In this document: piece after piece, positions 4,969-48,412 of the stretch
Layout: each line of letters opens with the position of its first letter
Numbering within the stretch: position 1 is the stretch's first letter
NCBI GenBank assembly: GCA_963719495.1
Contig: CAVRCI010000013.1
Coordinates: forward strand, 192,001-256,000
Direction: 5' to 3'
DNA length: 64,000 nucleotides
Source: an uncultured Verrucomicrobiae bacterium
GTDB taxonomy: Bacteria; Verrucomicrobiota; Verrucomicrobiia; Chthoniobacterales; JAATET01
The notes under the pieces: generated by a model
The model's input: only the letters and a program-made list of their open reading frames with translations
Databases searched by the model: none
What the model was told of the DNA's origin: nothing
Translations under genes and position numbers: made by a program

Positions 4969-6165
4969 TTAGAGGTAAGTCGGCAGGACGACGCCGCCAT
5001 CGGTTGGGCGCGCCACGTTCATTTCGTTGAGCTGAATCTCTGCCGTGACCACGGTGATCTGGTTGCCGAGCGCGGTCGTCACAGATTTCTGCGCCGCCGA
5101 CGCAGCCGGGTTGGTCAGCAGATGCTGGTAGCTCCAGAAGGTGTATTTACCTTCGACAACGTTTTCCTTGCTGAAAAAGACGCCGTTGAAGCTCAAGGCG
5201 CGGGCCGGACCGGCGAAGGTGCCGCTGGTCGTGGAAGTCGCCCGGCCGAGATCGCCGGTGCCCATGTAGCCCACGTACCACCCACCGATGCCGGGGACGG
5301 TCGTGCGCCGCAGGTTGTCGGCCAAGGTGCCGCCACTCGTGAACCCTTCGGTCGAGGCGAGTAGAGTCTGATCGGCCACGGTATTGCCGGAGAGGATCGG
5401 ATTGAACTGGCTCACCGTCGAAGTGACACCAACGCCAGTCTCGGCAAACGCGATCACGCGCGTTCCGGAATCGTCGTTACGACCGATGCCGAAGATCAGG
5501 CGAGGATGCGCCCCACCGAAGTTCTCCGGCTTATCACCCCACGTGCTGTTGAAGGTCGCGGTGCGATCGATGGCCAATCCCGAGAAGAGAGCGAGCGGAA
5601 CGAAGCCGACGCCGTTGTAGATCGCCTGAGCTTGGTTGCTCGTGATGTTCGTCACGCTGGCAGGTGCGCCCGTGCTCACCGCCCAGCCGAAGGCCACGAT
5701 GCCGACAATCTTGTCCTGCAACGTCACCGACTGAAAGGGCGTCGACGACTGAAACGAATCCGACATGGTCGCCTGCGGGACCTCGTTGACCAACGGGAAG
5801 CCGGCGGAAGGAGCGTTCTGAACAGCCGTGGTGCCAGTCGGGTGGTTGTCCGGCAGGTATTGCGCCGTGCCGCCAGTGACGACGGCCTCGATCCCGCCGA
5901 CCGATCCGCCAAACGAGGTCTTGATGGTCACGGACGCGCCTCCGATGACGAGATTGCCCTTGTAGATCGAGCGGGAAGCTCCGGTGGCGGATGTGCCGTT
6001 GTAAGCCGACGTGTAGCCAGGCTGCAAGATCTGCTGGATGGCGAGGTTGGTCTGGGTCCGGAAGGCGGTGGAGCCGGTAATCCGAACGACTGTTGTCTGG
6101 GCCGAAGCGGCCCCGATCGTCGCAAAAGCGACGGCGCAGGCGGCGAGGAGTCTAAGTGTTTTCAT
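4969..6165 (-). CDS. secreted PstS/PBP-superfamily-like substrate-binding protein
   Basis: Signal peptide MKTLRLL..ASA; ITGSTAF, GSVGGI, GRNDDSGTR and GKYTFWSYQH resemble phosphate-binding-protein motifs (GS-S/T, R-x-D-x-SGT, G-x-Y-x-W). Start placed at ATG 6165. Confidence 0.65.
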   Translation of the reverse strand: MKTLRLLAACAVAFATIGAASAQTTVVRITGSTAFRTQTNLAIQQILQPGYTSAYNGTSATGASRSIYKGNLVIGGASVTIKTSFGGSVGGIEAVVTGGTAQYLPDNHPTGTTAVQNAPSAGFPLVNEVPQATMSDSFQSSTPFQSVTLQDKIVGIVAFGWAVSTGAPASVTNITSNQAQAIYNGVGFVPLALFSGLAIDRTATFNSTWGDKPENFGGAHPRLIFGIGRNDDSGTRVIAFAETGVGVTSTVSQFNPILSGNTVADQTLLASTEGFTSGGTLADNLRRTTVPGIGGWYVGYMGTGDLGRATSTTSGTFAGPARALSFNGVFFSKENVVEGKYTFWSYQHLLTNPAASAAQKSVTTALGNQITVVTAEIQLNEMNVARPTDGGVVLPTYL

Positions 6166-6229
6166 AAGGATGGATTGCAGGGTGTTTTTTTTGGGTTGGT
6201 TGGGTTGGTGTTTGAGGTGAGTTGTGGGG

Positions 6230-7048
6230 TCACGCAGTGGCAGCATTCCGCTTCCGGCGAACCCAGTAAAAGAGACCGCCGATGAGGCCAAGGCTTGCCA
6301 GCGCGAGGACCGAAGGCTCGGGGACCGCTGTGAAGGTCACGACCCCCGCATTGGAGATCGCGAAGGTCCCGAGCAGCTCGCCGGGGAGGCCGAAGGTGCC
6401 GGCTCCCGACGTGCCGGGAGGGAGTCGATAGAGATCGAGTCCGGTGGCACTGCCGACCGTGGATTCGATTCCGCCCGGAAAGTAGGAGAAATCGTCATTC
6501 GGCTGCGTGAAAAAGGTATAACTGGTGGTCGCGTCGACGGTATTGTTGATGACCGTCGCCTTACCGCTGTTGGCGGTCGCCTCGCGAGGATTTCCGAGCT
6601 GATCTTCGAGGTAGGCGTTCGCCAGAGTGATGAAGCGATTGCTCGGCTGCGATTGACCCGACGGCGAGAAGCGCGTCCAGGGCTGCGATCCTTCGGCGCG
6701 AGTCGCGTAGATCGTCTGCGACGGATCGGAAGACGACCGGATACCCGACAGGCTCCACGTCACCTGGCTGTTGGAAAACCAAGCGCCGCCGTAGTTCGCC
6801 GAGAGGTCGGCGGCGATGCCCGGGCCGCTGTTGCCAAGGTTGAGCGTCACGGTTTGGTTGGCCGAGAGACCCCGGAACTGCGAAGACGATCCCGCGTTGA
6901 CAACGAGGTCGGACGGATTGCCCTGGACGCGGAACCCGATGAGCAGATCTCCGGAGTTGTAAGTGACGGGAGCCGCTGAAGCGCTTGCGGCCATTGCCAT
7001 CAATGCCGCTGCGCAGCCAAGCGCCGCCGTGGAAGAAGTAATTTTCAT
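6230..7048 (-). CDS. PEP-CTERM sorting-domain surface protein
   Basis: Signal peptide; C-terminal AVPEPS + TM + RRKR. Confidence 0.92.
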   Translation of the reverse strand: MKITSSTAALGCAAALMAMAASASAAPVTYNSGDLLIGFRVQGNPSDLVVNAGSSSQFRGLSANQTVTLNLGNSGPGIAADLSANYGGAWFSNSQVTWSLSGIRSSSDPSQTIYATRAEGSQPWTRFSPSGQSQPSNRFITLANAYLEDQLGNPREATANSGKATVINNTVDATTSYTFFTQPNDDFSYFPGGIESTVGSATGLDLYRLPPGTSGAGTFGLPGELLGTFAISNAGVVTFTAVPEPSVLALASLGLIGGLFYWVRRKRNAATA

Positions 7049-7202
7049 GAGGTATAAGGTGTTGAGTTTTGGTGCGGCTTTGGTTTCTCAGACGCACCGA
7101 GGTCCAACAACGAGTGTTGTGTGAACAATTCGTCACAAACCGTGGCGATGAATTTTCGCCCCGTGAGCAAGGGAAGCCAGTCACCGACCAGCCCGCTGTG
7201 CG

Positions 7203-10200
7203 CTACTCGTCGGAAATGACGCTAGCCTCGACGCCAAGAAGCGCGCGCGAAGGGTGGACGTCCCGCCGCGGTGCCGCGGGACCGATGACTCGCTCCCAGC
7301 CGTCGACTCGCAGCGCGGCGCGTTCGTTCAGCGTCCGCGCAAACGCGTCCGAGTCCTCCGACCCACTGATCCAAGCGCTCATCGCCGCGAAGCTTCCCAC
7401 CGCGACGTAGGAGATCGGCGCTCCGGCAACCTGAGACCGGCCTGCGAGCGCGAACCCGGGCGAGGGTGAGCCGTCCTTCGAATAATGAATGGTCCCCGAC
7501 ACGGGGATCGGCCAGCCGGCTACCGAGCGCACGGTAAGTTTTTCGAGCGACAACCGTCCGTCAAGTCGCGGCGCGCCGAGCGGGCCTCCCAACTTCAAAT
7601 TCCCCGAAAGGGTACCGGCGTCCGCACCACGGCCAATCCGCACGTCGGGGGCAAGCGCGACGCCCGCGTTCCAGGCCCATCCGCCGGGTTCATCCCGCGG
7701 GGCATCCGCCAATTCGACGGACGACGAGGCCTCTATGGAGGGTCTCGCGTCGAAGGTAAAGACCCGGTCGGCGCGCCCGCTAAGAACCTTGATCGAGCCA
7801 TCGACCGTTCCCGTTCCGAAGTCGCCGACCGCCCGAAGACGGATGGCCGCAAGCGCCTCGAGTCCGAACCCGTCGAGCGCGACATTTTCGGCGTTAAGAC
7901 CAAAATCAACCTTCGGGGTTCTTCCACCCTTGACCCCGCCGAAGAATTCCACCGGTCCGCCTCCCAACTCGCCTCGGGCCTTGGTGACCCGGATTTCCGA
8001 CCCGGTCAGTCGGATGCGAGCCGCCAGTCCGGTCACCTTCGGCGCCGACAAGTTCTCGAGGGCGAATTCCCCGTTTTTCACTTCCAAGTCGCCGCTCAAC
8101 TCGGGAGCCAACACGCTCCCCCCAATCCCCACGACGCCCGACAGCGTCCCGCCACTGGCGTCCACCCCGGGGATCAAAGCCCCCAGGACCTTCAAATTGG
8201 TCCGAGGAATGGCGATTTGCGCCGAGATCGGTGCCGTCCGGTCGAAGAATTTCACCTGACCTCCCTCCGCGACCTCGAACGCAAACGGCATCGCGGCGTC
8301 GATCACGAGCGGCTCGAATCCAGCGGAATCCATCGCTCCCTTCGCCCGGAGCCGCGCATCCCGCGTCGAAATCGCCAGGTCCACCGCTGTCCGCGGCAGT
8401 TGGTAACCGCCCGTCGTCACGGCGAGTCCGCGCCCCGAGATCAGCCCTTCGAGCGACAGCTCCGGAAGCGGCCCGCTGGCACCGAGACGAAACGTGACCG
8501 TCCCCGCCGCCACCGCGTCCTGCCCAGCCATCGCCACGAGTTCGGCCAACGGAAGCTCGCCGGACGAAACGCGAGCGTAGACCGGCTTCTTAAGGTCGAA
8601 GACCTCCCGCTTCGGCTCACCCCGCAGGAGCGCGAAAACGTTCACCGGCATGAAGGCCTCGCCGACGAGCAATTCGAGCTGCCGCCTCCGCAGATTCAAG
8701 TCCGCCAGATTCACCCCGGCATCCGAGACCGTGAGCCGGGTGGCGAATACGAGCGGCCCGTTTTGCAGCCGCAGTCGGCTCAAATACACGTTCTCCGGCG
8801 AATACGTTCCCTCGACTTCGCCGGTGATGCCCGTCGGCGTCCACGGCGTCGCCGCGTCCGCCAGCGACGCCCGGAAGACACCCGAATGCGCCGCCGCCGT
8901 CCCGTCGCCCTGCCAGGAGAACGTGAATCCACCCGATTCGAGCCACTTCGCGGCGGCCCCGCCGAGTTTCCCGGTAAAGCGGGAGACGTCCGCCATCGCC
9001 ACCGCGATTTCGCCGGAGTATCGGTGCGGGGCTTTCAGCCCGACCGCCCCCCGGGCCGTCAAGCGATCCGCGCCGCTCCAGAGTTCGACCGACCGCACCT
9101 CCAGCTCGCGGTCGTTGAGAACGGAGGACAATTTCATCGCCGTCCCGGGCAATCCCCGCAGCGTCAATCCGCTCGCCTCGGCGTTCGCGTAGCCGTCCAT
9201 CCGCCCCGCGTCGCCCGAGACCGAAGCGTGCAGTGACAAACGGCCCTCGAGATCCCGCCACGAATCTCCCGCGAAGGTTGCCAATTTCCGCACGTCCTTC
9301 AATTCCACCGAGACGTTGAGCAGAAAGTTCGAATCCAACCACTCGGCGTCCCCGCGCGGGACCGCGATCTCGCCGTTGGCCGTCACCCGGTTCTCTCCCG
9401 CGATCAGTTGAAAATTCGAAAAATACAGCCGCCGCCCAATGAAGTTCGCCCCCATCACCAGCGATTCCCAACGCTCGCCCCGCCGCGTCAGCCCTTCGGC
9501 CTCGAGCCGTACCGCGATCTCGGAATCCGCCCACCTCCCCGGCGTCCCCCGCCACGTCACCCGACCCTCTTTCAGCACTCCGCCGAAGGGCTCCGCCAGT
9601 CCGCTGAGCTTCGCCACCGCTTCCAGGGGTAAATCCGCGACCGACAAGGCGAGATCGACCCGCAGCAGACCCGCCTCCCTCTTCCACGAGCCGTCGCCGC
9701 GCACCTCTCCCCCGCCCACGCCCAAATCCAGACTCACCGACATTCCTCCCGGATCGGCCACGCTCACGACCAACGTCCTCACGTCCATCGCCTCCGCCAA
9801 TTCGAGGTCGCTGAAATACGCCACCCCGTCCCGCCACCCGCTCACCGCCCGCAAGTTCGACCACCCGACCACCCGACCGGCGGCCTCGGCGTCGACATTC
9901 GCGACGGTCACCTCACTCGTCGTCGACTCGCTGAGAGCGCCGCTGATCCCATCCATTCGCGCCCGCCCGTGGTCCGTCGTGAGTTCGAACGAACCGGATC
10001 GCACCGCGATTGTCTTCGGCAACAGCCGCAGCCGCATGGCCGCCCGAGCCTCCCGAGCCTCGGCACTCGTTTCGCCGTCCGTTGTCCGCAGTCCGGACTG
10101 CCGCCCCCGCAGATCGACCACCACGCTCGCACCGATGCAATCCAGCCGGTCGATCACCCTTCCATCGCCGAACAGAACTCCGAACAGCGAGCCGACCGTC

Positions 10201-10505
10201 ACCACGACTTCGTCGGCCGCGACCACAGCCCCCGGCGACGACGGATCGATCTCGCCCGCCCGCACGTCTCGAAGCACGACGGGCCGCAGCAATCCGGCCT
10301 CGACCGATTTCGCCTCCACCCGCCAACCCCAGCGCGGAGCCAGCCGTTCCATCCCAAATCGCACGAGCCTTTCGCTGATCGGTCGGTTCCCCACGAGCGC
10401 CGCGACCACCACAACGAGAAAACCCAGAACCAAAACACCCCGAACGCGCAACTTGCGGCGGGGCTTGGAAGTTGGTGGCAGCGCGCCGTGGGAATCTTCG
10501 CTCAT
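7203..10505 (-). CDS. TamB/AsmA-like translocation/assembly module protein
   Basis: 1100 aa, N-terminal TM anchor, Gly-rich repeated beta-strand pattern (GTLSGNLKLGGPLGAPRLDG). Confidence 0.65.
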   Translation of the reverse strand: MSEDSHGALPPTSKPRRKLRVRGVLVLGFLVVVVAALVGNRPISERLVRFGMERLAPRWGWRVEAKSVEAGLLRPVVLRDVRAGEIDPSSPGAVVAADEVVVTVGSLFGVLFGDGRVIDRLDCIGASVVVDLRGRQSGLRTTDGETSAEAREARAAMRLRLLPKTIAVRSGSFELTTDHGRARMDGISGALSESTTSEVTVANVDAEAAGRVVGWSNLRAVSGWRDGVAYFSDLELAEAMDVRTLVVSVADPGGMSVSLDLGVGGGEVRGDGSWKREAGLLRVDLALSVADLPLEAVAKLSGLAEPFGGVLKEGRVTWRGTPGRWADSEIAVRLEAEGLTRRGERWESLVMGANFIGRRLYFSNFQLIAGENRVTANGEIAVPRGDAEWLDSNFLLNVSVELKDVRKLATFAGDSWRDLEGRLSLHASVSGDAGRMDGYANAEASGLTLRGLPGTAMKLSSVLNDRELEVRSVELWSGADRLTARGAVGLKAPHRYSGEIAVAMADVSRFTGKLGGAAAKWLESGGFTFSWQGDGTAAAHSGVFRASLADAATPWTPTGITGEVEGTYSPENVYLSRLRLQNGPLVFATRLTVSDAGVNLADLNLRRRQLELLVGEAFMPVNVFALLRGEPKREVFDLKKPVYARVSSGELPLAELVAMAGQDAVAAGTVTFRLGASGPLPELSLEGLISGRGLAVTTGGYQLPRTAVDLAISTRDARLRAKGAMDSAGFEPLVIDAAMPFAFEVAEGGQVKFFDRTAPISAQIAIPRTNLKVLGALIPGVDASGGTLSGVVGIGGSVLAPELSGDLEVKNGEFALENLSAPKVTGLAARIRLTGSEIRVTKARGELGGGPVEFFGGVKGGRTPKVDFGLNAENVALDGFGLEALAAIRLRAVGDFGTGTVDGSIKVLSGRADRVFTFDARPSIEASSSVELADAPRDEPGGWAWNAGVALAPDVRIGRGADAGTLSGNLKLGGPLGAPRLDGRLSLEKLTVRSVAGWPIPVSGTIHYSKDGSPSPGFALAGRSQVAGAPISYVAVGSFAAMSAWISGSEDSDAFARTLNERAALRVDGWERVIGPAAPRRDVHPSRALLGVEASVISDE

Positions 10506-10705
10506 CGCGTCGGCAAACCTTCGAACACCCCGTAATCGCTGGAAAAAAACGCCACCCTAAAACGAATACAGCCCGCCGCAACCGAATGGCGCGACGGGCT
10601 GTTGTTCCCCCCAGAACAATCTTTCGATGAGCAAAAGGTAACCGAGTCGCCACGGACGGCAACAGAAATTCGAAGAAAATTAAAAATAGTCATGACGACC
10701 TCTCG

Positions 10706-11242
10706 TCAAACAGCTTGCGCTCCGATCTTGCCGCAATCCCGCTCCCAATACATCGTTTTCGAAGTCATCTCCTCCTGATCGAACTCGAAAAAGCCCCGAA
10801 ACCTGCGTCCCTCCAGCACTCCCGGCAGCCAATGCACGTCGTCGGCCCACATTTCGGCGTAGGGAATCGCCTCCAGCCGGGTCCAGATCGGGAGCGCCTC
10901 GTCGGTTTCGATGAGATCACCCTCGCAATCCGTCGCGAGGTAAACCGCGCATTCCAACGAATAGCCGTCGGCAAATTGAAAGAACAACTCCCCCCGCAAC
11001 GCCATCCCGAGCGGCGTCACCCCCACCTCCTCGCGCGTCTCACGAATCGCCGCTTCCAACGTCGTTTCGCCCGCCTCCAGCCGTCCACCCGGAGCGTTAA
11101 TCTTCCCCGCGCCGAGCCCACGCTTTTTTCGAATGAGCAGAATCCACCCGTCCCGAACGACGAAACACAGCGTCGCCCGTTCCCGCGGCACCCACCCGTC
11201 CCAGGGCGCACCCGTCGGCCGAGCCAACCCCAAGTCACTCAT
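10706..11242 (-). CDS. NUDIX hydrolase (8-oxo-dGTP diphosphatase-like)
   Basis: Nudix box GGRLEAGETTLEAAIRETREEVG; KKRGLGAGK and MWADD..W as in MTH1-like enzymes. Confidence 0.9.
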   Translation of the reverse strand: MSDLGLARPTGAPWDGWVPRERATLCFVVRDGWILLIRKKRGLGAGKINAPGGRLEAGETTLEAAIRETREEVGVTPLGMALRGELFFQFADGYSLECAVYLATDCEGDLIETDEALPIWTRLEAIPYAEMWADDVHWLPGVLEGRRFRGFFEFDQEEMTSKTMYWERDCGKIGAQAV

Positions 11243-11257
11243 CTTCTCACCGAAGCC

Positions 11258-11707
11258 CTACCCGAACCCCGGCAGCAATTGAGTGCTCAACGCCCGGTCC
11301 AGCGACAACCGACCGCCGCCCAGGAAAAGCAGAGCAAACGCCACCATCCCGAGAGCAAACGGATATTCATTTGCCGAGATCCCCTCACCGGCGTGCACGA
11401 TCACGATCGCCCCGGCCATGATCGCCATCACCCCCAACGCCGCCGCCCGCGTGAAAAACCCGAGAAACATCGCCACCGCGACCAGCATCTCCCCGACGAT
11501 CGCCGCCATGGCCACCGCGAACGGCAGGCCCAAACCCTCCACCGACGTCCACATTTTCAGAGTCTGCGTCCAACCCTCGCCGCCGAACCAGCCGAACATC
11601 TTCTGCCCGCCGTGGTAGACGAAAACCGTCGCCAGCAGCATCCGCAAAACGAAGGGTCCAAAGCTCCGCGGAGTGGAGAAAAAAGCGAAGACCGGGTTAC
11701 TGGACAC
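11258..11707 (-). CDS. DoxX family membrane protein
   Basis: LRMLLATVFVYHGGQKMFGWFGG...GFFTRAAA...EYP...GGGRLSLD; GTG start inferred. Confidence 0.88.
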   Translation of the reverse strand: MSSNPVFAFFSTPRSFGPFVLRMLLATVFVYHGGQKMFGWFGGEGWTQTLKMWTSVEGLGLPFAVAMAAIVGEMLVAVAMFLGFFTRAAALGVMAIMAGAIVIVHAGEGISANEYPFALGMVAFALLFLGGGRLSLDRALSTQLLPGFG

Positions 11708-11768
11708 GGGAGCGGATATACCAGCGAACACCCGATTCCAAAATCCAAAATCTCAAATCCAAAATCCG

Positions 11769-11841
11769 TAGGGGCGGCGGGATTCGAACCCGCAACCAAC
11801 CAGTTATGAGCCGGCTGCTCTAACCATTGAGCTACACCCCC
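11769..11841 (-). tRNA. tRNA with CAT anticodon (probably tRNA-Ile2, possibly elongator Met); CCA not encoded
   Basis: Cloverleaf GGGGGTG-TAGCTCAATGGTTAGAGC-GCCGG CTCATAA CTGGT-GCGGG TTCGAAT CCCGC-CGCCCCT-A; lacks the initiator GGG/CCC anticodon stem. Confidence 0.93.
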
Positions 11842-12031
11842 GGTGGCGGGGGCACGTTAGGTGAGCGTCGCGCGGAAAGCACGCGAATCCGCATTGCGGA
11901 CGTGTGATTGGTGACTGGTGACTGGTGATTGGTGGGAATGCAATTCAAGGAGCGGCGGGTTGACTTCGTCGGTCTCCGCTTCGCTCCGGCTCCAGCCGCC
12001 GAAGTTTCACCCACCATTCACCATTCACCAA

Positions 12032-43249: not shown

Positions 43250-44215
43250 CTACGCCGACACCGCCGCCCGCGCCTCGTCGGCCAGCGGCGTGCTCAGGTA
43301 GCGCTCGCCCGTCGAGCAGGCCACCGTGACGATGAGCTTGCCGGCATTCTCGGGCCGCTTCGCCAGTTCGACCGCCGCGTGCACGTTCGCCCCTGAGCTG
43401 ATCCCGCCGAGGATTCCCTCCTCCTTGGCCAGCCGCCGCGCCATCGCGAAGGCGTCGTCGTTCGAAACTTGAAAAACCTCATCCACCACGTCGAGGTGAA
43501 GGTTGTTCGGCACGAACCCCGCGCCGGCACCCTGAATCTTGTGCGGCCCCGGCTTGAGCGGTTCGCCCGCCCGCGTCTGCGTGATCACCGGCGATGCGTC
43601 CGGCTCGACCACCACGACCTGGAAGCCCGGCTTGCGCGACTTGAGCACCTCGCCCACGCCCGTCGCCGTCCCGCCCGTCCCGACCGCCGCGACGAAGATG
43701 TCGATCCCGCCGTCCGTGTCGTCCCACAGCTCCTCGGCCGTCGTTTTCTGGTGAATCGCCGGGTTCGCCGGGTTGTTGAACTGCTGCGGCATCCACGAGT
43801 TCGGCGTCTCCTCCACGATGGCCTCGGCGCGCGCGATCGCCCCCTTCATGCCCTCCGGCCCCGGCGTCAGCACGAGTTTCGCCCCCAGCATCGCCAGCAG
43901 AGTCCGCCGCTCGACGCTCATCGTCTCCGGCATCGTCAGGATCAATTTATAGCCCCTCGCCGCCGCCACGAAGGCCAGAGCAATCCCGGTATTCCCACTC
44001 GTCGGCTCGACGATCGTCGTCTCGGCGTCGATCAACCCCCGCTCCTCGGCGTCCTGGATCATCGCCATACCGATCCGGTCCTTCACGCTGCCCAACGGAT
44101 TGAAAAATTCGCACTTCACGGCGATCGTCGCCGGCAGTCCCTTCGTGATGCGGTTCAGTCGAACGAGCGGCGTGCAGCCCACCGTTTCGACGATGTCGTT
44201 GTAGATTTTACCCAT
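43250..44215 (-). CDS. cysK: cysteine synthase A
   Basis: [11 protein letters not shown] (PLP Lys), [29 protein letters not shown]. Confidence 0.97.
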
Positions 44216-44292: not shown

Positions 44293-44571
44293 ATGGCCAC
44301 TCTCCTCACCGATTCCCAGATCTCCGACCACCTCGCCACCCTCACCGATTGGAAACTCGAGGAAAAATCCATCACGCAGACCTTTGAATTCAAGAGCTTC
44401 ACGACCGCCATGGAGTTCGTCAACGAAGTCGCCGACCTCGCCGAAGACGCCAATCACCACCCCGACATCGACATCCGCTGGAACAAGGTCACCCTCACCC
44501 TCTCGACCCACAGCGACGGCGGCCTCACCAAAGCCGACACCGACCTCGCCGCGCAAATCGACGACCTGTAA
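44293..44571 (+). CDS. pterin-4-alpha-carbinolamine dehydratase
   Basis: [21 protein letters not shown] motif. Confidence 0.93.
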
Positions 44572-44711
44572 CGCCAGCATCCCGCTGGCAGGATCCCAGC
44601 GAGCGAAGCGCCCGCGCCACGACGAGCCCCTCGTCCCGGACTTGACGCCCACCCCGCGTGCGCTACGTATTCCCAAAGCGGGCCATCCCCGCCATCGATC
44701 TTTTTCACCAA

Positions 44712-44788
44712 TCCGTCGGCCTAGGAAAGCAAGGGTGGAAGTCCCTCACTGTCGCGCAAAGGTCATAGTCCGGTTTCGAACCGACGGA
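44712..44788 (+). ncRNA. cobalamin riboswitch, short (AdoCbl-variant / class II-like)
   Basis: Closing stem TCCGTCGG/CCGACGGA; AGGAAAG junction; AGGG-TGGAAGT-CCCT T-loop stem; ACTGTCGCGCAA.GGT; AGTCCG B12-box-like segment; lies in the 5' leader of an operon. Confidence 0.8.
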
Positions 44789-44913
44789 GAAAACCGCACC
44801 GCCCTGCGATGGGCAACGGCGCCGCGTAAGCGTCCGTGCGGGGGGAGTCCTTTCTGATTTTTCGGGGGAAAGGCTGTCCTAACACATCCCCGTGTCTCAA
44901 ATCAGAAAAACTC

Positions 44914-45609
44914 ATGATAAAGTCACTTCTTCGGAAGCTCCTCGTCGCGTCGACCCTTGCCGCCGCCGCACTCACCACGTCCCTTCAATCGGCCCCGATC
45001 ACGGGATTCGACGACATCCAACTCTGGTATGGCACCGGCACCAACCGCGCCGGCTTAGTTATCGACTGGAACGACGGCAAATCCTCCAACAGCCTCGCGT
45101 GGGGCTTTCGCTGGAACGGCACCGCCACCGGCGAGGACATGTTCACCGCCGTCGCCGGAGCCATCGCCACATTCGCCAGCGGCACTCCGGCACCCCCACC
45201 TTCCCCCGACGGTTTGGGCGACCCAAGTCTCGCGCTCTACCAGCGCCAGTTCTCGTCCGGAAATTCCGTCGACCGCATCACCTTCGATCTCAACGGCAAC
45301 GGTGCGCTGGACGCGGGTGACAACGACCAGAACAGCGATGGGTTCATGAATGGGTTTTGGAGCTATTGGAACGACGAAGGCACCGGCGACTACCCGACAA
45401 GCTGGACGGACGCACCAGTCGGTTTCTCGGACCGCGACCTCGTAAACGGAAGCTGGGACGCCTGGAGCTACGTTCCAGATTTCGACGGAATCCCACCCCG
45501 CGCCGCCATCGCGGCGGTCCCTGAACCCAGATCCATCTGGCTCCTGATCACCGCCGTCAGCACAGCCATCGTAATCGCCGTCACCCGCCACCGCCGTGCA
45601 AAACTCTGA
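44914..45609 (+). CDS. PEP-CTERM surface protein, candidate cobalamin-binding
   Basis: Signal peptide; Trp-rich body (IDWNDG, LAWGFRWNG, FWSYW, GSWDAWSY); AVPEPRS + TM + RHRR. Confidence 0.85.
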   Translation: MIKSLLRKLLVASTLAAAALTTSLQSAPITGFDDIQLWYGTGTNRAGLVIDWNDGKSSNSLAWGFRWNGTATGEDMFTAVAGAIATFASGTPAPPPSPDGLGDPSLALYQRQFSSGNSVDRITFDLNGNGALDAGDNDQNSDGFMNGFWSYWNDEGTGDYPTSWTDAPVGFSDRDLVNGSWDAWSYVPDFDGIPPRAAIAAVPEPRSIWLLITAVSTAIVIAVTRHRRAKL

Positions 45610-46385
45610 TGCGGCCGCATCGAAGTTTTGCAAGGTTTGGGGGTTTTCGTGCGTTCACGCTGATCGAGATTTTGGTGACCCTCGCGGTGGTAGTTGCTCT
45701 CGCGGCGCTCACTACCCAAGTCGCGCGCGCCGTCTACCTGCGATCTTCGCTGGCCGTGTCAGCGGCCAACATTCGGGCCCTGTCCGTGGGCGCGGCGCAA
45801 TACCTGGCCGAGAATAACCATCGCTTCTGGAAATTTCGCGAAGACTCCTCCGACGGGACAACTTGGTGGTGGGGGTTCGAGACAACAGCCAGTCGGGCTC
45901 GCCCGGAAGGTGATCGCACCTACGATCCAAGTCGCGGACCCCTCCGCGAATTCATCCCCGCAGGCACTCGTCCGGACCCCAGCTTCGCGTTGAGCGGCTC
46001 GGCGTTTAAACCAAAGTTCCAAAGTGGCTACGTCGGTGCCGGCTACAACGTCCTCCTCTGCGGCGGATTCGCCGGCACCCGGACCAATCCCCTCGCCGGT
46101 CGAAGCTACTGGGAACTCAGCGACCCTTCGAAAGTCGTCGTCTTCACCACCTCCGCTCAGGTCTACCCCTTCGGTTCCGCCAGCAAACCCCGGATCGAGG
46201 AGTTTTACGGCATCGACCAACGCGAGACGACCGTCCACTTCCGGCACGGAGGATCGGCCATGGTCGCCTACGCCAGCGGCGCCAGCGGCTTCCTCCCGCC
46301 CGACGAATCCACCCTCGACAAACGGGCACCCGAAGCGAAAATCGGTCGCTTCGCACCCGTCGGCAGCCGAAAATACCTGGAATGA
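45609..46385 (+). CDS. prepilin-type N-terminal cleavage/methylation domain protein with H-X9-DG-like C-terminus
   Basis: RAFTLIEILVTLAVVVAL; HFRHGGSAMVAYASG (H-X9-SG); TGATG overlap with the upstream gene. Confidence 0.85.
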   Translation: MRPHRSFARFGGFRAFTLIEILVTLAVVVALAALTTQVARAVYLRSSLAVSAANIRALSVGAAQYLAENNHRFWKFREDSSDGTTWWWGFETTASRARPEGDRTYDPSRGPLREFIPAGTRPDPSFALSGSAFKPKFQSGYVGAGYNVLLCGGFAGTRTNPLAGRSYWELSDPSKVVVFTTSAQVYPFGSASKPRIEEFYGIDQRETTVHFRHGGSAMVAYASGASGFLPPDESTLDKRAPEAKIGRFAPVGSRKYLE

Positions 46386-46978
46386 AAACACCATCCGCCC
46401 GCCTCACCACCCCGATTCTCGCCCTCGCGCTCGGCCTTCTCCTCGTCGGAGCCTTCTTCCGCGTCATCCGACTCGAAGCCCTCCCCGCCCTCCCGAATTT
46501 CGCCCCCCTCATGGCCATCGCCCTCTGCGGTGCCCTCGTCCTCCCCGGTGCCGTCGCCATCCTCGTCCCGCTCACCGCCCTGATCGTCTCGGACGTCCTC
46601 CTCAACTTCCACTACGGCTACCCCGCCGTCGGCTCCGACGAGCTGCTCCGCTACGCCATTTACGGCATCGGCATCGCCTCCGGCATCGCCCTCCGCGGCC
46701 GCCGCGCCCCGATGATCTTTGGTGCCGTTGCCGCAAACTCGTTCCTCTTCTACCTCGTCTCGAACACCGCGTCCTGGTTCGGCAACTTCGGCTACGCGCA
46801 GACCGCCGCCGGCTGGGTTCAAGCCCTCACCGTCGGCCTCCCCGGATTCCCGCCCACCTGGGTCTTCTTCCGCAACTCCCTCGCCAGCGACCTCCTCTTC
46901 GCGGGCATCTTCCTCGGAGCGCTCGCCCTCGTGCGCCAGTCTCGCCAGACGCAATCGCCTCAGCTGGCAAAAGTTTAA
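46382..46978 (+). CDS. DUF6580-like putative transporter (ECF S-component-like, about 6 TM)
   Basis: LPNFAPLMAIAL.G, PL.AL.VSD, SFLFYLVSN..SW, Y.QT.AG....TVGLP.F, FRNSLASDLLF; ATGA overlap. Confidence 0.75.
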   Translation: MKTPSARLTTPILALALGLLLVGAFFRVIRLEALPALPNFAPLMAIALCGALVLPGAVAILVPLTALIVSDVLLNFHYGYPAVGSDELLRYAIYGIGIASGIALRGRRAPMIFGAVAANSFLFYLVSNTASWFGNFGYAQTAAGWVQALTVGLPGFPPTWVFFRNSLASDLLFAGIFLGALALVRQSRQTQSPQLAKV

Positions 46979-48111
46979 CTCTTCGCCGCGGAGTAGAGTT
47001 CTTCCAAAGAACTCAACAAAGCCGCCTCGGAGAATGCTTCCCGAACCGTCGCGGCACCCGCCCGCGCAACCCGCTCGAATAACGCCGGATCGCCCACCAG
47101 CCGCTCGACGGCCCGCGCCAGACCCGCCGCATCTCGCTCATCGACGAGCAGCCCATTTTCGCCGTCGATAACCACCTCAGGAATTCCCCCGTGCTGCGTC
47201 GCCACAACCGGCAGACCGCTCGCCATCGCTTCCAGCAGCGAATTCGGCACCCCCTCGGAGTCCCCCGCCGCCCCCTCACTCGGATGAATGAAAACGTGCG
47301 CCCGAGCCATGATCTCCTGCAAGCGCCCCTGATCCACGAAGCCCGCAAAATCCACGCGATCCGCCACCCCAAGGTCCTCCGCCAGAGCCCTCAACTCCCC
47401 CTCCATCGGTCCCGATCCGACGATCGCCAGTTCCGCGTTCGGCAAATCCATCCGCGCAAACGACCTCAGCGTGGTCGCCAGTCCCTTTTTCGCAATCAGC
47501 CGCGACGCCTGCACCAGCCGAATCCCACCGTCGTCCGGCAGCCACCGCTCGACGAACTCGACCTCTGGCACCACCGTCCGCACCACCCGCACTTTCCCGC
47601 GCGGACAACCCATCGCCACCAACCGCTCGACCAAAGCCTCCGACCGGCAAGCCACCCACGCCGCCCGCGCGAACAACTCCGCCCGGGCCGCCGCGTAACC
47701 CTCCGAGGCAATCGCCCCCGTCACGTCCGCCCCGTGAAACGACACGACGAACGGGATCGGCAGCCGCCGCAGCAGCGGCAGCAAATGCACCGCCACATTG
47801 CCAAAGAAAACGTGCAGCACGTCGACCGATTCCTCCCGCAACAGGTTCAGCACCGCGTCGCCCTCCCTTCCGCTAAGCTGCCACGGATGCCCGGTGAGAT
47901 ACCGCTCCACCGCCCGACCCCAGAACCGGAACGCCGTCCGCCGAACGAGGTGCAACCGCTCCGTCGGAAAAACGTCCGCGTTCTCGATCTTCTGAGCGAT
48001 CACGATCGGCCGAAAAATCGCCGAAGCCACAATCTGCCGCCACACGTGGTGCATTTCCGGCTTGAGATACGTCGCGCAGAAAAACGCGACCCGCGGCGGC
48101 CTAGAAATCAA
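46975..48111 (-). CDS. GT4-family glycosyltransferase (WcaL-like)
   Basis: VSFHGADV, SRLIAKKG, GDSEGVPNSLLEAMASGLPVVATQHGGIPE; TTG start inferred. Confidence 0.9.
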   Translation of the reverse strand: MISRPPRVAFFCATYLKPEMHHVWRQIVASAIFRPIVIAQKIENADVFPTERLHLVRRTAFRFWGRAVERYLTGHPWQLSGREGDAVLNLLREESVDVLHVFFGNVAVHLLPLLRRLPIPFVVSFHGADVTGAIASEGYAAARAELFARAAWVACRSEALVERLVAMGCPRGKVRVVRTVVPEVEFVERWLPDDGGIRLVQASRLIAKKGLATTLRSFARMDLPNAELAIVGSGPMEGELRALAEDLGVADRVDFAGFVDQGRLQEIMARAHVFIHPSEGAAGDSEGVPNSLLEAMASGLPVVATQHGGIPEVVIDGENGLLVDERDAAGLARAVERLVGDPALFERVARAGAATVREAFSEAALLSSLEELYSAAKS

Positions 48112-48412
48112 GCGCGAACAGGATAAACCCGCGAGGCTTACCGGGCTGCTCCGGATTCTCCGAGACCGTGCCATTCGTCCGTCCGTTCCCCGCCGACTTC
48201 GGAGCCGCCGGATTCACCAATTGCCACGGGCGGGTCTCGTTGAAGATTTTCGCAACGATCCCACCCACCGCCGGATCCGGTGCCACCGTGATCTGCTCGG
48301 TCGCTGGCTGAACCGGAATCTCCTCCTCCCCCTGAAAAACCACGAACTCCTGCCCCCAACTCCCAAACGAAGCAAACATCCCAAAAGCCAAAGCCAGCAA
48401 AAGCGTCTTCAT
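48101..48412 (-). CDS. small secreted hypothetical protein
   Basis: Signal peptide MKTLLLALAF; PWQLVNPAAP..GNG; C-terminal Phe. Confidence 0.65.
   Translation of the reverse strand: MKTLLLALAFGMFASFGSWGQEFVVFQGEEEIPVQPATEQITVAPDPAVGGIVAKIFNETRPWQLVNPAAPKSAGNGRTNGTVSENPEQPGKPRGFILFALDF

Follow-up and report, generated by a model that had tools for sequence, protein, structure and literature searches.

A cobalamin riboswitch and an operon of PEP-CTERM, prepilin-like and DUF6580 genes as a likely TonB receptor-independent route to vitamin B12 in a Verrucomicrobiota bacterium

The window analyzed here, a stretch of 64,000 nucleotides (nt) from contig CAVRCI010000013.1 of an uncultured Verrucomicrobiae bacterium (assembly GCA_963719495.1, positions 192,001 to 256,000 of the forward strand), contains a compact operon of three genes preceded by a riboswitch-like leader (Table 1). 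Gene 1 encodes a PEP-CTERM protein, gene 2 a prepilin-like protein and gene 3 a membrane protein of the DUF6580 family, and these labels, given in a preliminary description of the DNA, agree with matches to TIGR02595, TIGR02532 and PF20221, respectively. Our analysis suggests that the riboswitch and the three genes constitute the vitamin B12 acquisition system of the bacterium and would work without a TonB-dependent receptor, a reading to which we assign a probability of about 0.68; the link of the operon to B12 is well supported, if indirectly. The gene boundaries lie where the preliminary description had placed them: gene 1 starts with the ATG at 44914, the sequence TGATG (45607-45611) joins its stop codon to the start of gene 2, and ATGA (46382-46385) joins the stop codon of gene 2 to the start of gene 3, which in turn ends against a convergent glycosyltransferase gene. 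The operon was also correctly described as lacking btuB, btuF and btuCD, as no match to these families was found in the three gene products or the two flanking genes scanned.

Table 1. Features of the operon and its surroundings, followed by features of other loci named in the text. Positions are those of the window unless a locus (L number) is given; G000 is the host genome; aa, amino acids.
Feature	Position	Strand	Description and basis
Cobalamin riboswitch aptamer core, compact, AdoCbl-II-like	44708..44792	+	RF01689 match and covariance model R1 (see text)
Leader extension	44793..44913	+	Three-way junction, hairpin and predicted helix over the pre-AUG region (putative expression platform); RNAalifold, duplex energies
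Gene 1	44914..45609	+	231 aa; signal peptide, PEP-CTERM anchor, predicted transcobalamin-beta-like domain; candidate surface B12 binder
Gene 2	45609..46385	+	258 aa; prepilin-like: N-terminal methylation motif, long helix, beta head
Gene 3	46382..46978	+	198 aa; DUF6580 membrane protein; candidate solitary inner-membrane B12 carrier
GT4 glycosyltransferase, convergent	46975-48174	-	Family scan; ends against gene 3
Pterin-4a-carbinolamine dehydratase	44293-44571	+	Pfam 2.5e-32; upstream neighbor
Cysteine synthase-like open reading frame	43250-44215	-	Named from translation alone; upstream neighbor
Heme operon	L152 (G000:C9:171000-187000), 5440-11953	-	In order: PEP-CTERM protein (306 aa), prepilin-like protein (282 aa), HemS/ChuX, Peripla_BP_2, FecCD, ABC ATPase, AraC-type regulator
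Long aptamers	L056:3195-3310, L046:3051-3162, L020:1236-1347, L087:3173-3284		Core insertion of ~30 nt

By comparative evidence, the leader RNA is a member of the cobalamin riboswitch clan (Rfam CL00101), as the preliminary description had proposed. At the gathering score, Rfam returned three tRNAs alone and no riboswitch family for the whole window, and a permissive scan of 401 nt placed AdoCbl-II (RF01689) at 44713-44787 with 24 bits and an E-value of 0.0026. Taken alone, the window copy is therefore a sub-threshold match, and it is the comparative data, orthologous leaders and covariation, that raise it above chance. For these comparisons, 61 related genomes were examined by profile searches, with gene calls from simple open reading frame (ORF) scripts, and 80 loci, mostly from metagenome bins, were retrieved from public Verrucomicrobiota genomes using gene 2 as the query; the host genome itself is 98.6% complete. 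A match to the cobalamin clan lies directly upstream of the gene 1 orthologue, on the same strand, in 18 of 20 loci of relatives, and 14 of the 20 orthologous leaders reach or exceed the gathering score, eight as AdoCbl-II and six as the classical Cobalamin riboswitch (RF00174). In an alignment of twelve compact leaders, column identity is 90%, and compensatory changes are seen in P1 as well as the first hairpin. A covariance model built from these twelve, termed R1, for which 52 bits or more was taken as a strong match, scores the window element at 103.7 bits, within the range of the other leaders.

Strong R1 matches precede gene 1 in 43 of the 80 loci, and 19 of the remaining 37 carry RF00174 at or above the gathering score, giving a riboswitch in 62 of 80. 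The other 18 comprise seven loci cut by a contig end, three with a weak but correctly placed R1 match, and eight in which nothing was found. In 60 aligned R1 matches, an alignment fitted to the R1 model itself, 89.1% of cells are paired, as compared with 78.5% in shuffled alignments (none of 500 as high) and 33-51% in slid controls, and 10 of 19 pairs have changed on both sides, which none of the 500 shuffles equaled. A search of the host genome with R1 found one copy among the 150 of 4889 candidates scored. The window element lies upstream of gene 1, a protein with a predicted B12-carrier fold.

The element resembles the AdoCbl-II riboswitch, to which eight of its orthologous leaders can be assigned, in its compact three-hairpin junction closed by P1. 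It differs from this class (class II, formerly AdoCbl-variant) in that the P2 of Rfam is mostly replaced by invariant CCUAGG...UCGAACC segments with no standard pairs; one proposed P2 pair was dropped, as 43 of its 45 cells are non-standard. It differs further in that the aptamer is followed by a conserved extension of about 120 nt, which reaches the start codon and folds into its own three-way junction and a hairpin. RNAalifold predicted 43 pairs in 18 leaders, 11 of them with compensatory changes. The 5' strand of the extension hairpin is complementary to the 24 nt preceding the AUG (own pairs, mean -16.5 kcal/mol; cross pairs, -14.6 kcal/mol; permutation p 0.0026, for sequences that are related and not independent). 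This complementarity predicts translational control, and we infer that the extension acts as an expression platform that hides the ribosome-binding region. On the expression side, a search for sequencing runs listed two DNA metagenome runs from a single study and no RNA run. A kissing-loop between the loops of the first aptamer hairpin and the extension hairpin was discarded, because the loops, compared by eye, showed no complementarity.

Two variants of the aptamer recur in the family. The closing pair of the third hairpin (window 44760-44775; columns 115-145 of alignments A4/A5) is C-G in 21 distinct sequences and a non-standard A.G in 23, and the change of C to A is always accompanied by a change of A to G one base past the 3' partner, even in a different family (L022); this coupled change may point to another pairing register or to a contact in the tertiary structure. 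In addition, four aptamers of 112-116 nt match R1 over its full length at 73-76 bits and contain some 30 inserted nt within their cores (Table 1).

Gene 1 ends in a PEP-CTERM tail (VPEPRSIWLL...RHRRAKL) that matches TIGR02595 (16.4 bits; cut-off, 16), and the corresponding Pfam tail PF07589 is found in 16 of 19 members of its family. Apart from this tail, no Pfam body domain, neither DUF4430 nor DUF4465, was found in any of the 19 members at E-values up to 1, and the family profile had no match among sequences of the PDB. At an E-value of 1e-5 or better, the family numbers at least 239 proteins, annotated merely as 'hypothetical' or 'PEP-CTERM sorting domain-containing', and relatives occur in 23 of the 61 related genomes. 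The structure predicted by AlphaFold2 is of high confidence (predicted local distance difference test score, pLDDT, 88.3; predicted template modeling score 0.80). With this model, ranks 1-16 of a Foldseek search are all transcobalamin or intrinsic factor, yet none reaches an E-value of 0.001. A VIA-align search against 48,161 structural representatives placed intrinsic factor (2pmv_A) first, at Z 12.6 and a root-mean-square deviation (rmsd) of 2.1 Å over 108 residues (chain residues 290-399), followed by haptocorrin (4kkj_A, Z 11.9), bovine transcobalamin (2bb6_A, Z 11.5), the isolated beta domain of transcobalamin (5no0_A, Z 10.8, 101 of 105 residues) and a bacterial protein that aligns to the same beta-domain fold (3u7z_B, Z 10.2). 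The rmsd of these five lies between 1.8 and 2.3 Å over 96-108 residues, and the sixth match drops to Z 6.0. As the five best matches are B12 carriers and 3u7z, gene 1 is predicted to carry the beta-domain fold of the eukaryotic carriers transcobalamin and intrinsic factor. It differs from these carriers in having no sequence-level match to them and no alpha domain, and in possessing a lineage-variable insertion and the PEP-CTERM anchor. The domain of 3u7z is of the type that we take to be Pfam DUF4430, and none of the papers listed for DUF4430 dealt with bacterial uptake.

Two loci of the family have exchanged the gene 1 product for a DUF4465 protein. In L054, an R1-type riboswitch and gene 2 flank a protein with a DUF4465 domain and a PEP-CTERM tail (by Pfam) in the slot of gene 1, and in a related genome (G006) a Cobalamin riboswitch precedes a DUF4465 protein, and a gene 2-like pilin comes next. 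Binding of B12 by DUF4465 domains, including those from Coraliomargarita, Haloferula and a planctomycete, has been shown experimentally (PMC13398666), and that paper mentions neither pilins nor PEP-CTERM. The proposal of the preliminary description, that an exosortase-anchored protein captures corrinoids at the cell surface, is consistent with the predicted B12-carrier fold of gene 1, and a binding role is well supported, if indirectly.

Gene 2 carries the prepilin motif TIGR02532 (19.6 bits; cut-off, 16.3), and its match to the Pfam N_methyl domain (16.8 bits) stays under the cut-off of 21.2. Its AlphaFold2 model (pLDDT 80.5) shows a helix of about 50 residues (18-68) followed by the strands of a beta head. 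The family profile matched pilin N-termini alone in the PDB, and a Foldseek search with the model found no significant neighbor, the top two hits being type IV pilins at E about 1. Orthologues of gene 2 have an H-x9-DG motif near the C-terminus, in which the window copy has S for D; the model of the H-X9-DG prepilin-associated family, presumably TIGR04294, was not among the NCBIfam matches to gene 2 at E-values up to 0.1. The expanded prepilin-like families of bacteria of the Planctomycetota-Verrucomicrobiota-Chlamydiota (PVC) group are, we presume, those named DUF1559 or H-X9-DG, and a literature search for DUF1559 and H-X9-DG prepilins by name returned nothing relevant. A complex prediction of gene 1 (residues 27-200) with gene 2 (residues 41-258) gave a score of 0.01 and no answer.

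Gene 2 is the most constant partner in these loci: a gene 1 relative lies upstream of gene 2 in 72 of the 80 loci, and in 12 of 14 inspected loci with an absent or weak gene 1 match the upstream ORF ends in a PEP-CTERM-like tail. Genes 1 and 2 are a conserved, riboswitch-linked pair and the core unit across lineages. The synteny of riboswitch, PEP-CTERM, prepilin and DUF6580 genes, which the preliminary description had named as a check, stands for the riboswitch and the pair, whereas DUF6580 follows gene 2 in few loci, as discussed below. Methionine-pathway genes are a recurrent feature downstream of the pair. In several Chthoniobacterales lineages (L061, L066, L067, L108, L110 and others), metY (Cys_Met_Meta_PP) begins 10-33 nt past the stop codon of gene 2 and is followed by a metX-like hydrolase gene, and in other loci metH or metK follows gene 2, which poses the question of whether such genes share a transcript with the B12 operon.

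Judged from its gene content, the host is dependent on imported B12. A MetH-like ORF of 1251 amino acids is present, and profile searches of the host genome found no MetE, CbiC, CobQ, CobS or EcfT (PF02361); searches for CobQ and CobS in 21 genomes likewise found neither of them. The same genome yielded no match to the TonB-dependent barrel (PF00593), the Plug domain (PF07715) or BtuB (TIGR01779). Its only FecCD/BtuC-type ATP-binding cassette (ABC) permease sits in a heme operon with HemS and a periplasmic binding protein, which rules this transporter out as a BtuCD. Close relatives have one ORF of about 755 amino acids with a weak plug match that is absent from the host.

Gene 1 and full-length BtuB, moreover, exclude each other among the 61 genomes. 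BtuB-like genes at E 1e-50 or better occur in 11 genomes (families f5, f6, f7 and f15, and one genus of f9), gene 1 in 23, and never both in one genome; the other genus of f9 has gene 1 and no BtuB-like match. Two genomes with gene 1 (G041 and G057) have weak plug-region matches only (E 3e-13). In the sister families, RF00174 lies upstream of the BtuB-like gene in all six loci examined. The pattern of gene 1 and BtuB follows phylogeny and thus reflects few independent events. The route independent of a TonB-dependent receptor that had been proposed in the preliminary description is supported, indirectly and at the level of gene content, by this mutual exclusion and by the host genome, in which no such receptor was found. 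For B12 acquisition in this genome, the operon is the strongest candidate. Literature searches on PEP-CTERM proteins with a cobalamin riboswitch, and on Verrucomicrobiota cobalamin riboswitches with BtuB, found nothing relevant, and no published description of a riboswitch followed by PEP-CTERM and pilin-like genes was found in the literature searched.

Gene 3 is a DUF6580 protein (PF20221; 107.5 bits against a cut-off of 27, E 1e-30, profile positions 8-158 of 162), and an atlas look-up returned the same assignment and nothing further. The sole PDB match of the DUF6580 profile is 6fnp_A, the 182-residue membrane chain of ECF-CbrT, over about 145 residues, with an E-value of 0.025 for a 10-sequence profile and 2.5e-4 for a 26-sequence profile, and the two share an (I/L)PN(V/F)xP motif. 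The 6FNP structure is that of the B12 transporter ECF-CbrT, an energy-coupling factor (ECF) system of Lactobacillus delbrueckii (PMC5997447). Like its membrane chain, gene 3 is a small protein with multiple membrane spans; it differs in belonging to a separate Pfam family with marginal similarity. A literature search for DUF6580 by name found none. The solitary S-component BtuM binds cobalt through a cysteine. DUF6580 may be likened to such solitary proteins, as no ECF module was found in the host genome, and differs from BtuM in that its 26-sequence alignment has no invariant or nearly invariant cysteine column. BtuM, cited as a precedent in the preliminary description, was given up as a model for gene 3, since no BtuM chain appeared among the PDB matches and the resemblance is to CbrT.

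Outside the families that have genes 1 and 2, a 2-oxoacid dehydrogenase E1 alpha gene adjoins DUF6580, often with gidA on the other side, at L125, L126, L128, L132, L133, L141, L143-L145, L147 and L149; in family f5, a riboswitch-controlled btuB is likewise followed by an E1_dh paralogue (see also L116 and L120). Between DUF6580 and metH, an ORF of 346-420 amino acids with no Pfam match is found at L048:5297-6415, L059:5147-6406 and L065:2875-3912.

Taken together, these features outline a possible path for B12. Gene 1 would be exported and anchored by an exosortase via its PEP-CTERM tail, and would bind corrinoids at the cell surface through its transcobalamin-beta-like domain. Gene 2 would be processed by a prepilin peptidase and would act with machinery resembling a type II secretion system or type IV pilus, together with a secretin, so that the ligand, or the binder loaded with it, passes the outer membrane and the periplasm. 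We infer this relay role from the position of gene 2, the missing receptor and the parallel with the heme operon described below. Gene 3, as a CbrT-like DUF6580 protein, would carry B12 over the inner membrane unaided. At high levels of B12, the riboswitch would silence the operon, probably through masking of the ribosome-binding region. The components needed for such a path are found in the host genome, which encodes two exosortases (PF09721, E 6e-45 and 9e-42), a prepilin peptidase (Peptidase_A24) and five secretin ORFs.

Several observations weigh against this interpretation. The relatives share ancestry and most are metagenome bins, so that counts across genomes are not independent. The carrier role of gene 3 is plausible but contested: the similarity of DUF6580 to CbrT is weak (23.9 bits), DUF6580 follows gene 2 in only 13 of the 80 loci, 19 of 20 DUF6580 loci unlinked to genes 1 and 2 have no cobalamin riboswitch within 1.5 kb (in the single exception the riboswitch points the other way), and 11 of 22 unlinked loci adjoin a 2-oxoacid dehydrogenase E1 gene. 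DUF6580 could accordingly be a housekeeping membrane protein with another substrate and a chance neighbor of genes 1 and 2, B12 crossing the inner membrane otherwise, and its presence at about one copy per genome in 43 of 61 relatives, regardless of their B12 system, would fit this view. We nevertheless regard it as rather unlikely. The only PDB relative of the family is the B12-specific CbrT, gene 3 overlaps the stop codon of gene 2, and DUF6580 lies between gene 2 and metH in six loci (in L080, MetH follows gene 2 and no DUF6580 was detected). Furthermore, EcfT occurs in 5 of the 61 related genomes as compared with 43 for DUF6580, and the 15 genomes of the BtuB-bearing families f5, f6, f7 and f15 contain DUF6580 in all 15, EcfT in two and FecCD in none, while the sole FecCD system of the host belongs to the heme operon. 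Of the inner-membrane B12 carrier put forward in the preliminary description, then, the resemblance to a B12 S-component and the missing ECF module stand, whereas a constant association with gene 2 does not.

For gene 2, the head domain has no significant structural relative and its link to B12 is one of position only. Genes 1 and 2 might thus be accessory surface scavengers or reservoirs, comparable to BtuG, BtuH and BtuJ of Bacteroides, with B12 entering by another channel and the pilin merely holding or displaying the binder. The fold of gene 1 and its exchange for DUF4465 support binding and not translocation, DUF4465 proteins elsewhere are described as accessory to BtuB (PMC13398666), and the head of gene 2 has no informative structural match. 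Set against this are the host genome, in which no TonB-dependent receptor was found, the separation of gene 1 from full-length BtuB throughout the 61 genomes, and a pair of the same type at the usual place of a receptor gene in the heme operon; we consider an accessory role unlikely.

The riboswitch itself presents further difficulties. The window aptamer scores 24 bits under RF01689, below the gathering score of 36.5, the minimum-free-energy fold of the leader is not better than that of shuffled sequences (z -0.29), the closing pair of its third hairpin is A.G, as in about half of the family, and neither R1 nor RF00174 found a riboswitch in eight of the 80 loci despite ample upstream DNA. Searches of the host genome with RF00174 and RF01689 returned nothing and missed even the window element, with 150 of 402 and 150 of 311 candidates scored, respectively; given this miss and the few candidates scored, the element is not established as the only B12 riboswitch of the genome. 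Such a copy, which differs from higher-scoring relatives by an extra A and by three or four substitutions, might have decayed and no longer sense B12, leaving the operon constitutive. This is very improbable, since the identical variant is present in two genomes of the same genus (L004 and L011), the paired C-to-A and A-to-G changes recur in another family, every invariant column is retained, and the score with the family model R1 is in the range of the other leaders. Least probable of all is that B12 represses a surface or pilus function with no relation to its uptake, such as adhesion or a substitute for some process that does not need B12: isozymes independent of B12 are also under the control of cobalamin riboswitches, and methionine-pathway genes often follow gene 2, although B12 repression of methionine-precursor genes such as metY-metX would itself be odd, and the exported products without enzyme domains, the specific match of the gene 1 fold to B12 carriers and the DUF4465 B12 binders in the gene 1 slot of two loci all argue for B12 acquisition.

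The pairing of a PEP-CTERM protein with a pilin-like protein extends beyond B12 in the host genome. Its heme operon (Table 1) starts with such a pair, which occupies the usual place of the gene for a TonB-dependent heme receptor. Homology between the pilin of this operon and gene 2 extends over 203 columns (hhalign probability 97.9%, E 6e-13), whose and the PEP-CTERM protein of the operon has only the anchor in common with gene 1. By analogy, the start of the heme operon suggests a general import module that dispenses with a receptor. We tentatively extend this to a modular device of those PVC bacteria, Chthoniobacterales included, for which TonB-dependent receptors were not found: a ligand-specific PEP-CTERM binder and a dedicated pilin-like protein might cooperate with secretin or type IV filament machinery that pulls large nutrients through the outer membrane, the B12 and heme operons being two instances and peptide and glycan loci containing further pairs. 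This generalization is possible and carries far less confidence than the B12 assignment itself. In the host genome, five of 27 pilin-like ORFs have a PEP-CTERM ORF directly upstream. Besides those of the B12 and heme operons, these five pairs include three at L153 (G000:C13:131000-141000), L154 (G000:C1:249000-259000) and L155 (G000:C9:86500-96500). One of the three adjoins genes for an MFS_2 sugar transporter and for a GDSL esterase, another those for an M20 peptidase and two ABC permeases of peptides, and the third those for a LacI regulator and a lyase of heparinase II/III-like type.

Comparison with known systems reveals both common and distinct features. In the B12 capture loci of Bacteroides (PMC13398666), a cobalamin riboswitch likewise drives a surface B12 binder and transport genes, namely BtuB and the lipoproteins BtuG, BtuH and BtuJ1/J2, and the DUF4465 domain of BtuJ occupies the binder slot in two relatives of the window operon. 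The window operon differs in having no TonB-dependent transporter and in anchoring its binder through PEP-CTERM and not through lipid. In addition, its binder is predicted to be transcobalamin-beta-like and not a jellyroll or propeller, and its obligatory partner is pilin-like. Akkermansia muciniphila, also of the Verrucomicrobiota, imports mucin in a pilus-dependent manner (Davey et al., as described in bioRxiv 10.1101/2024.03.27.586211), and pilin-like proteins are thereby implicated in the uptake of a large nutrient. The present system is distinct in its vitamin substrate, its riboswitch control and the dedicated PEP-CTERM binder paired with each pilin-like gene.

The locus bears on how a vitamin of 1.3 kDa enters diderm bacteria that lack TonB-dependent receptors, and on the PEP-CTERM and pilin-like genes that, unexplained, number in the dozens in many Verrucomicrobiota and Planctomycetota. 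It combines a defined ligand with an RNA switch as reporter and a binder whose predicted fold is recognizable, and its pilin-like partner recurs in the heme operon; the function of two large orphan protein families thus becomes testable by ordinary assays. It further adds a bacterial family with a predicted transcobalamin beta-domain fold undetectable by sequence, and an RNA variant that Rfam models score poorly, namely a compact cobalamin riboswitch whose second domain is conserved.

Upstream of the operon, a gap of 340 nt separates the pterin-4a-carbinolamine dehydratase gene from gene 1, and the cysteine synthase-like ORF lies beyond it.

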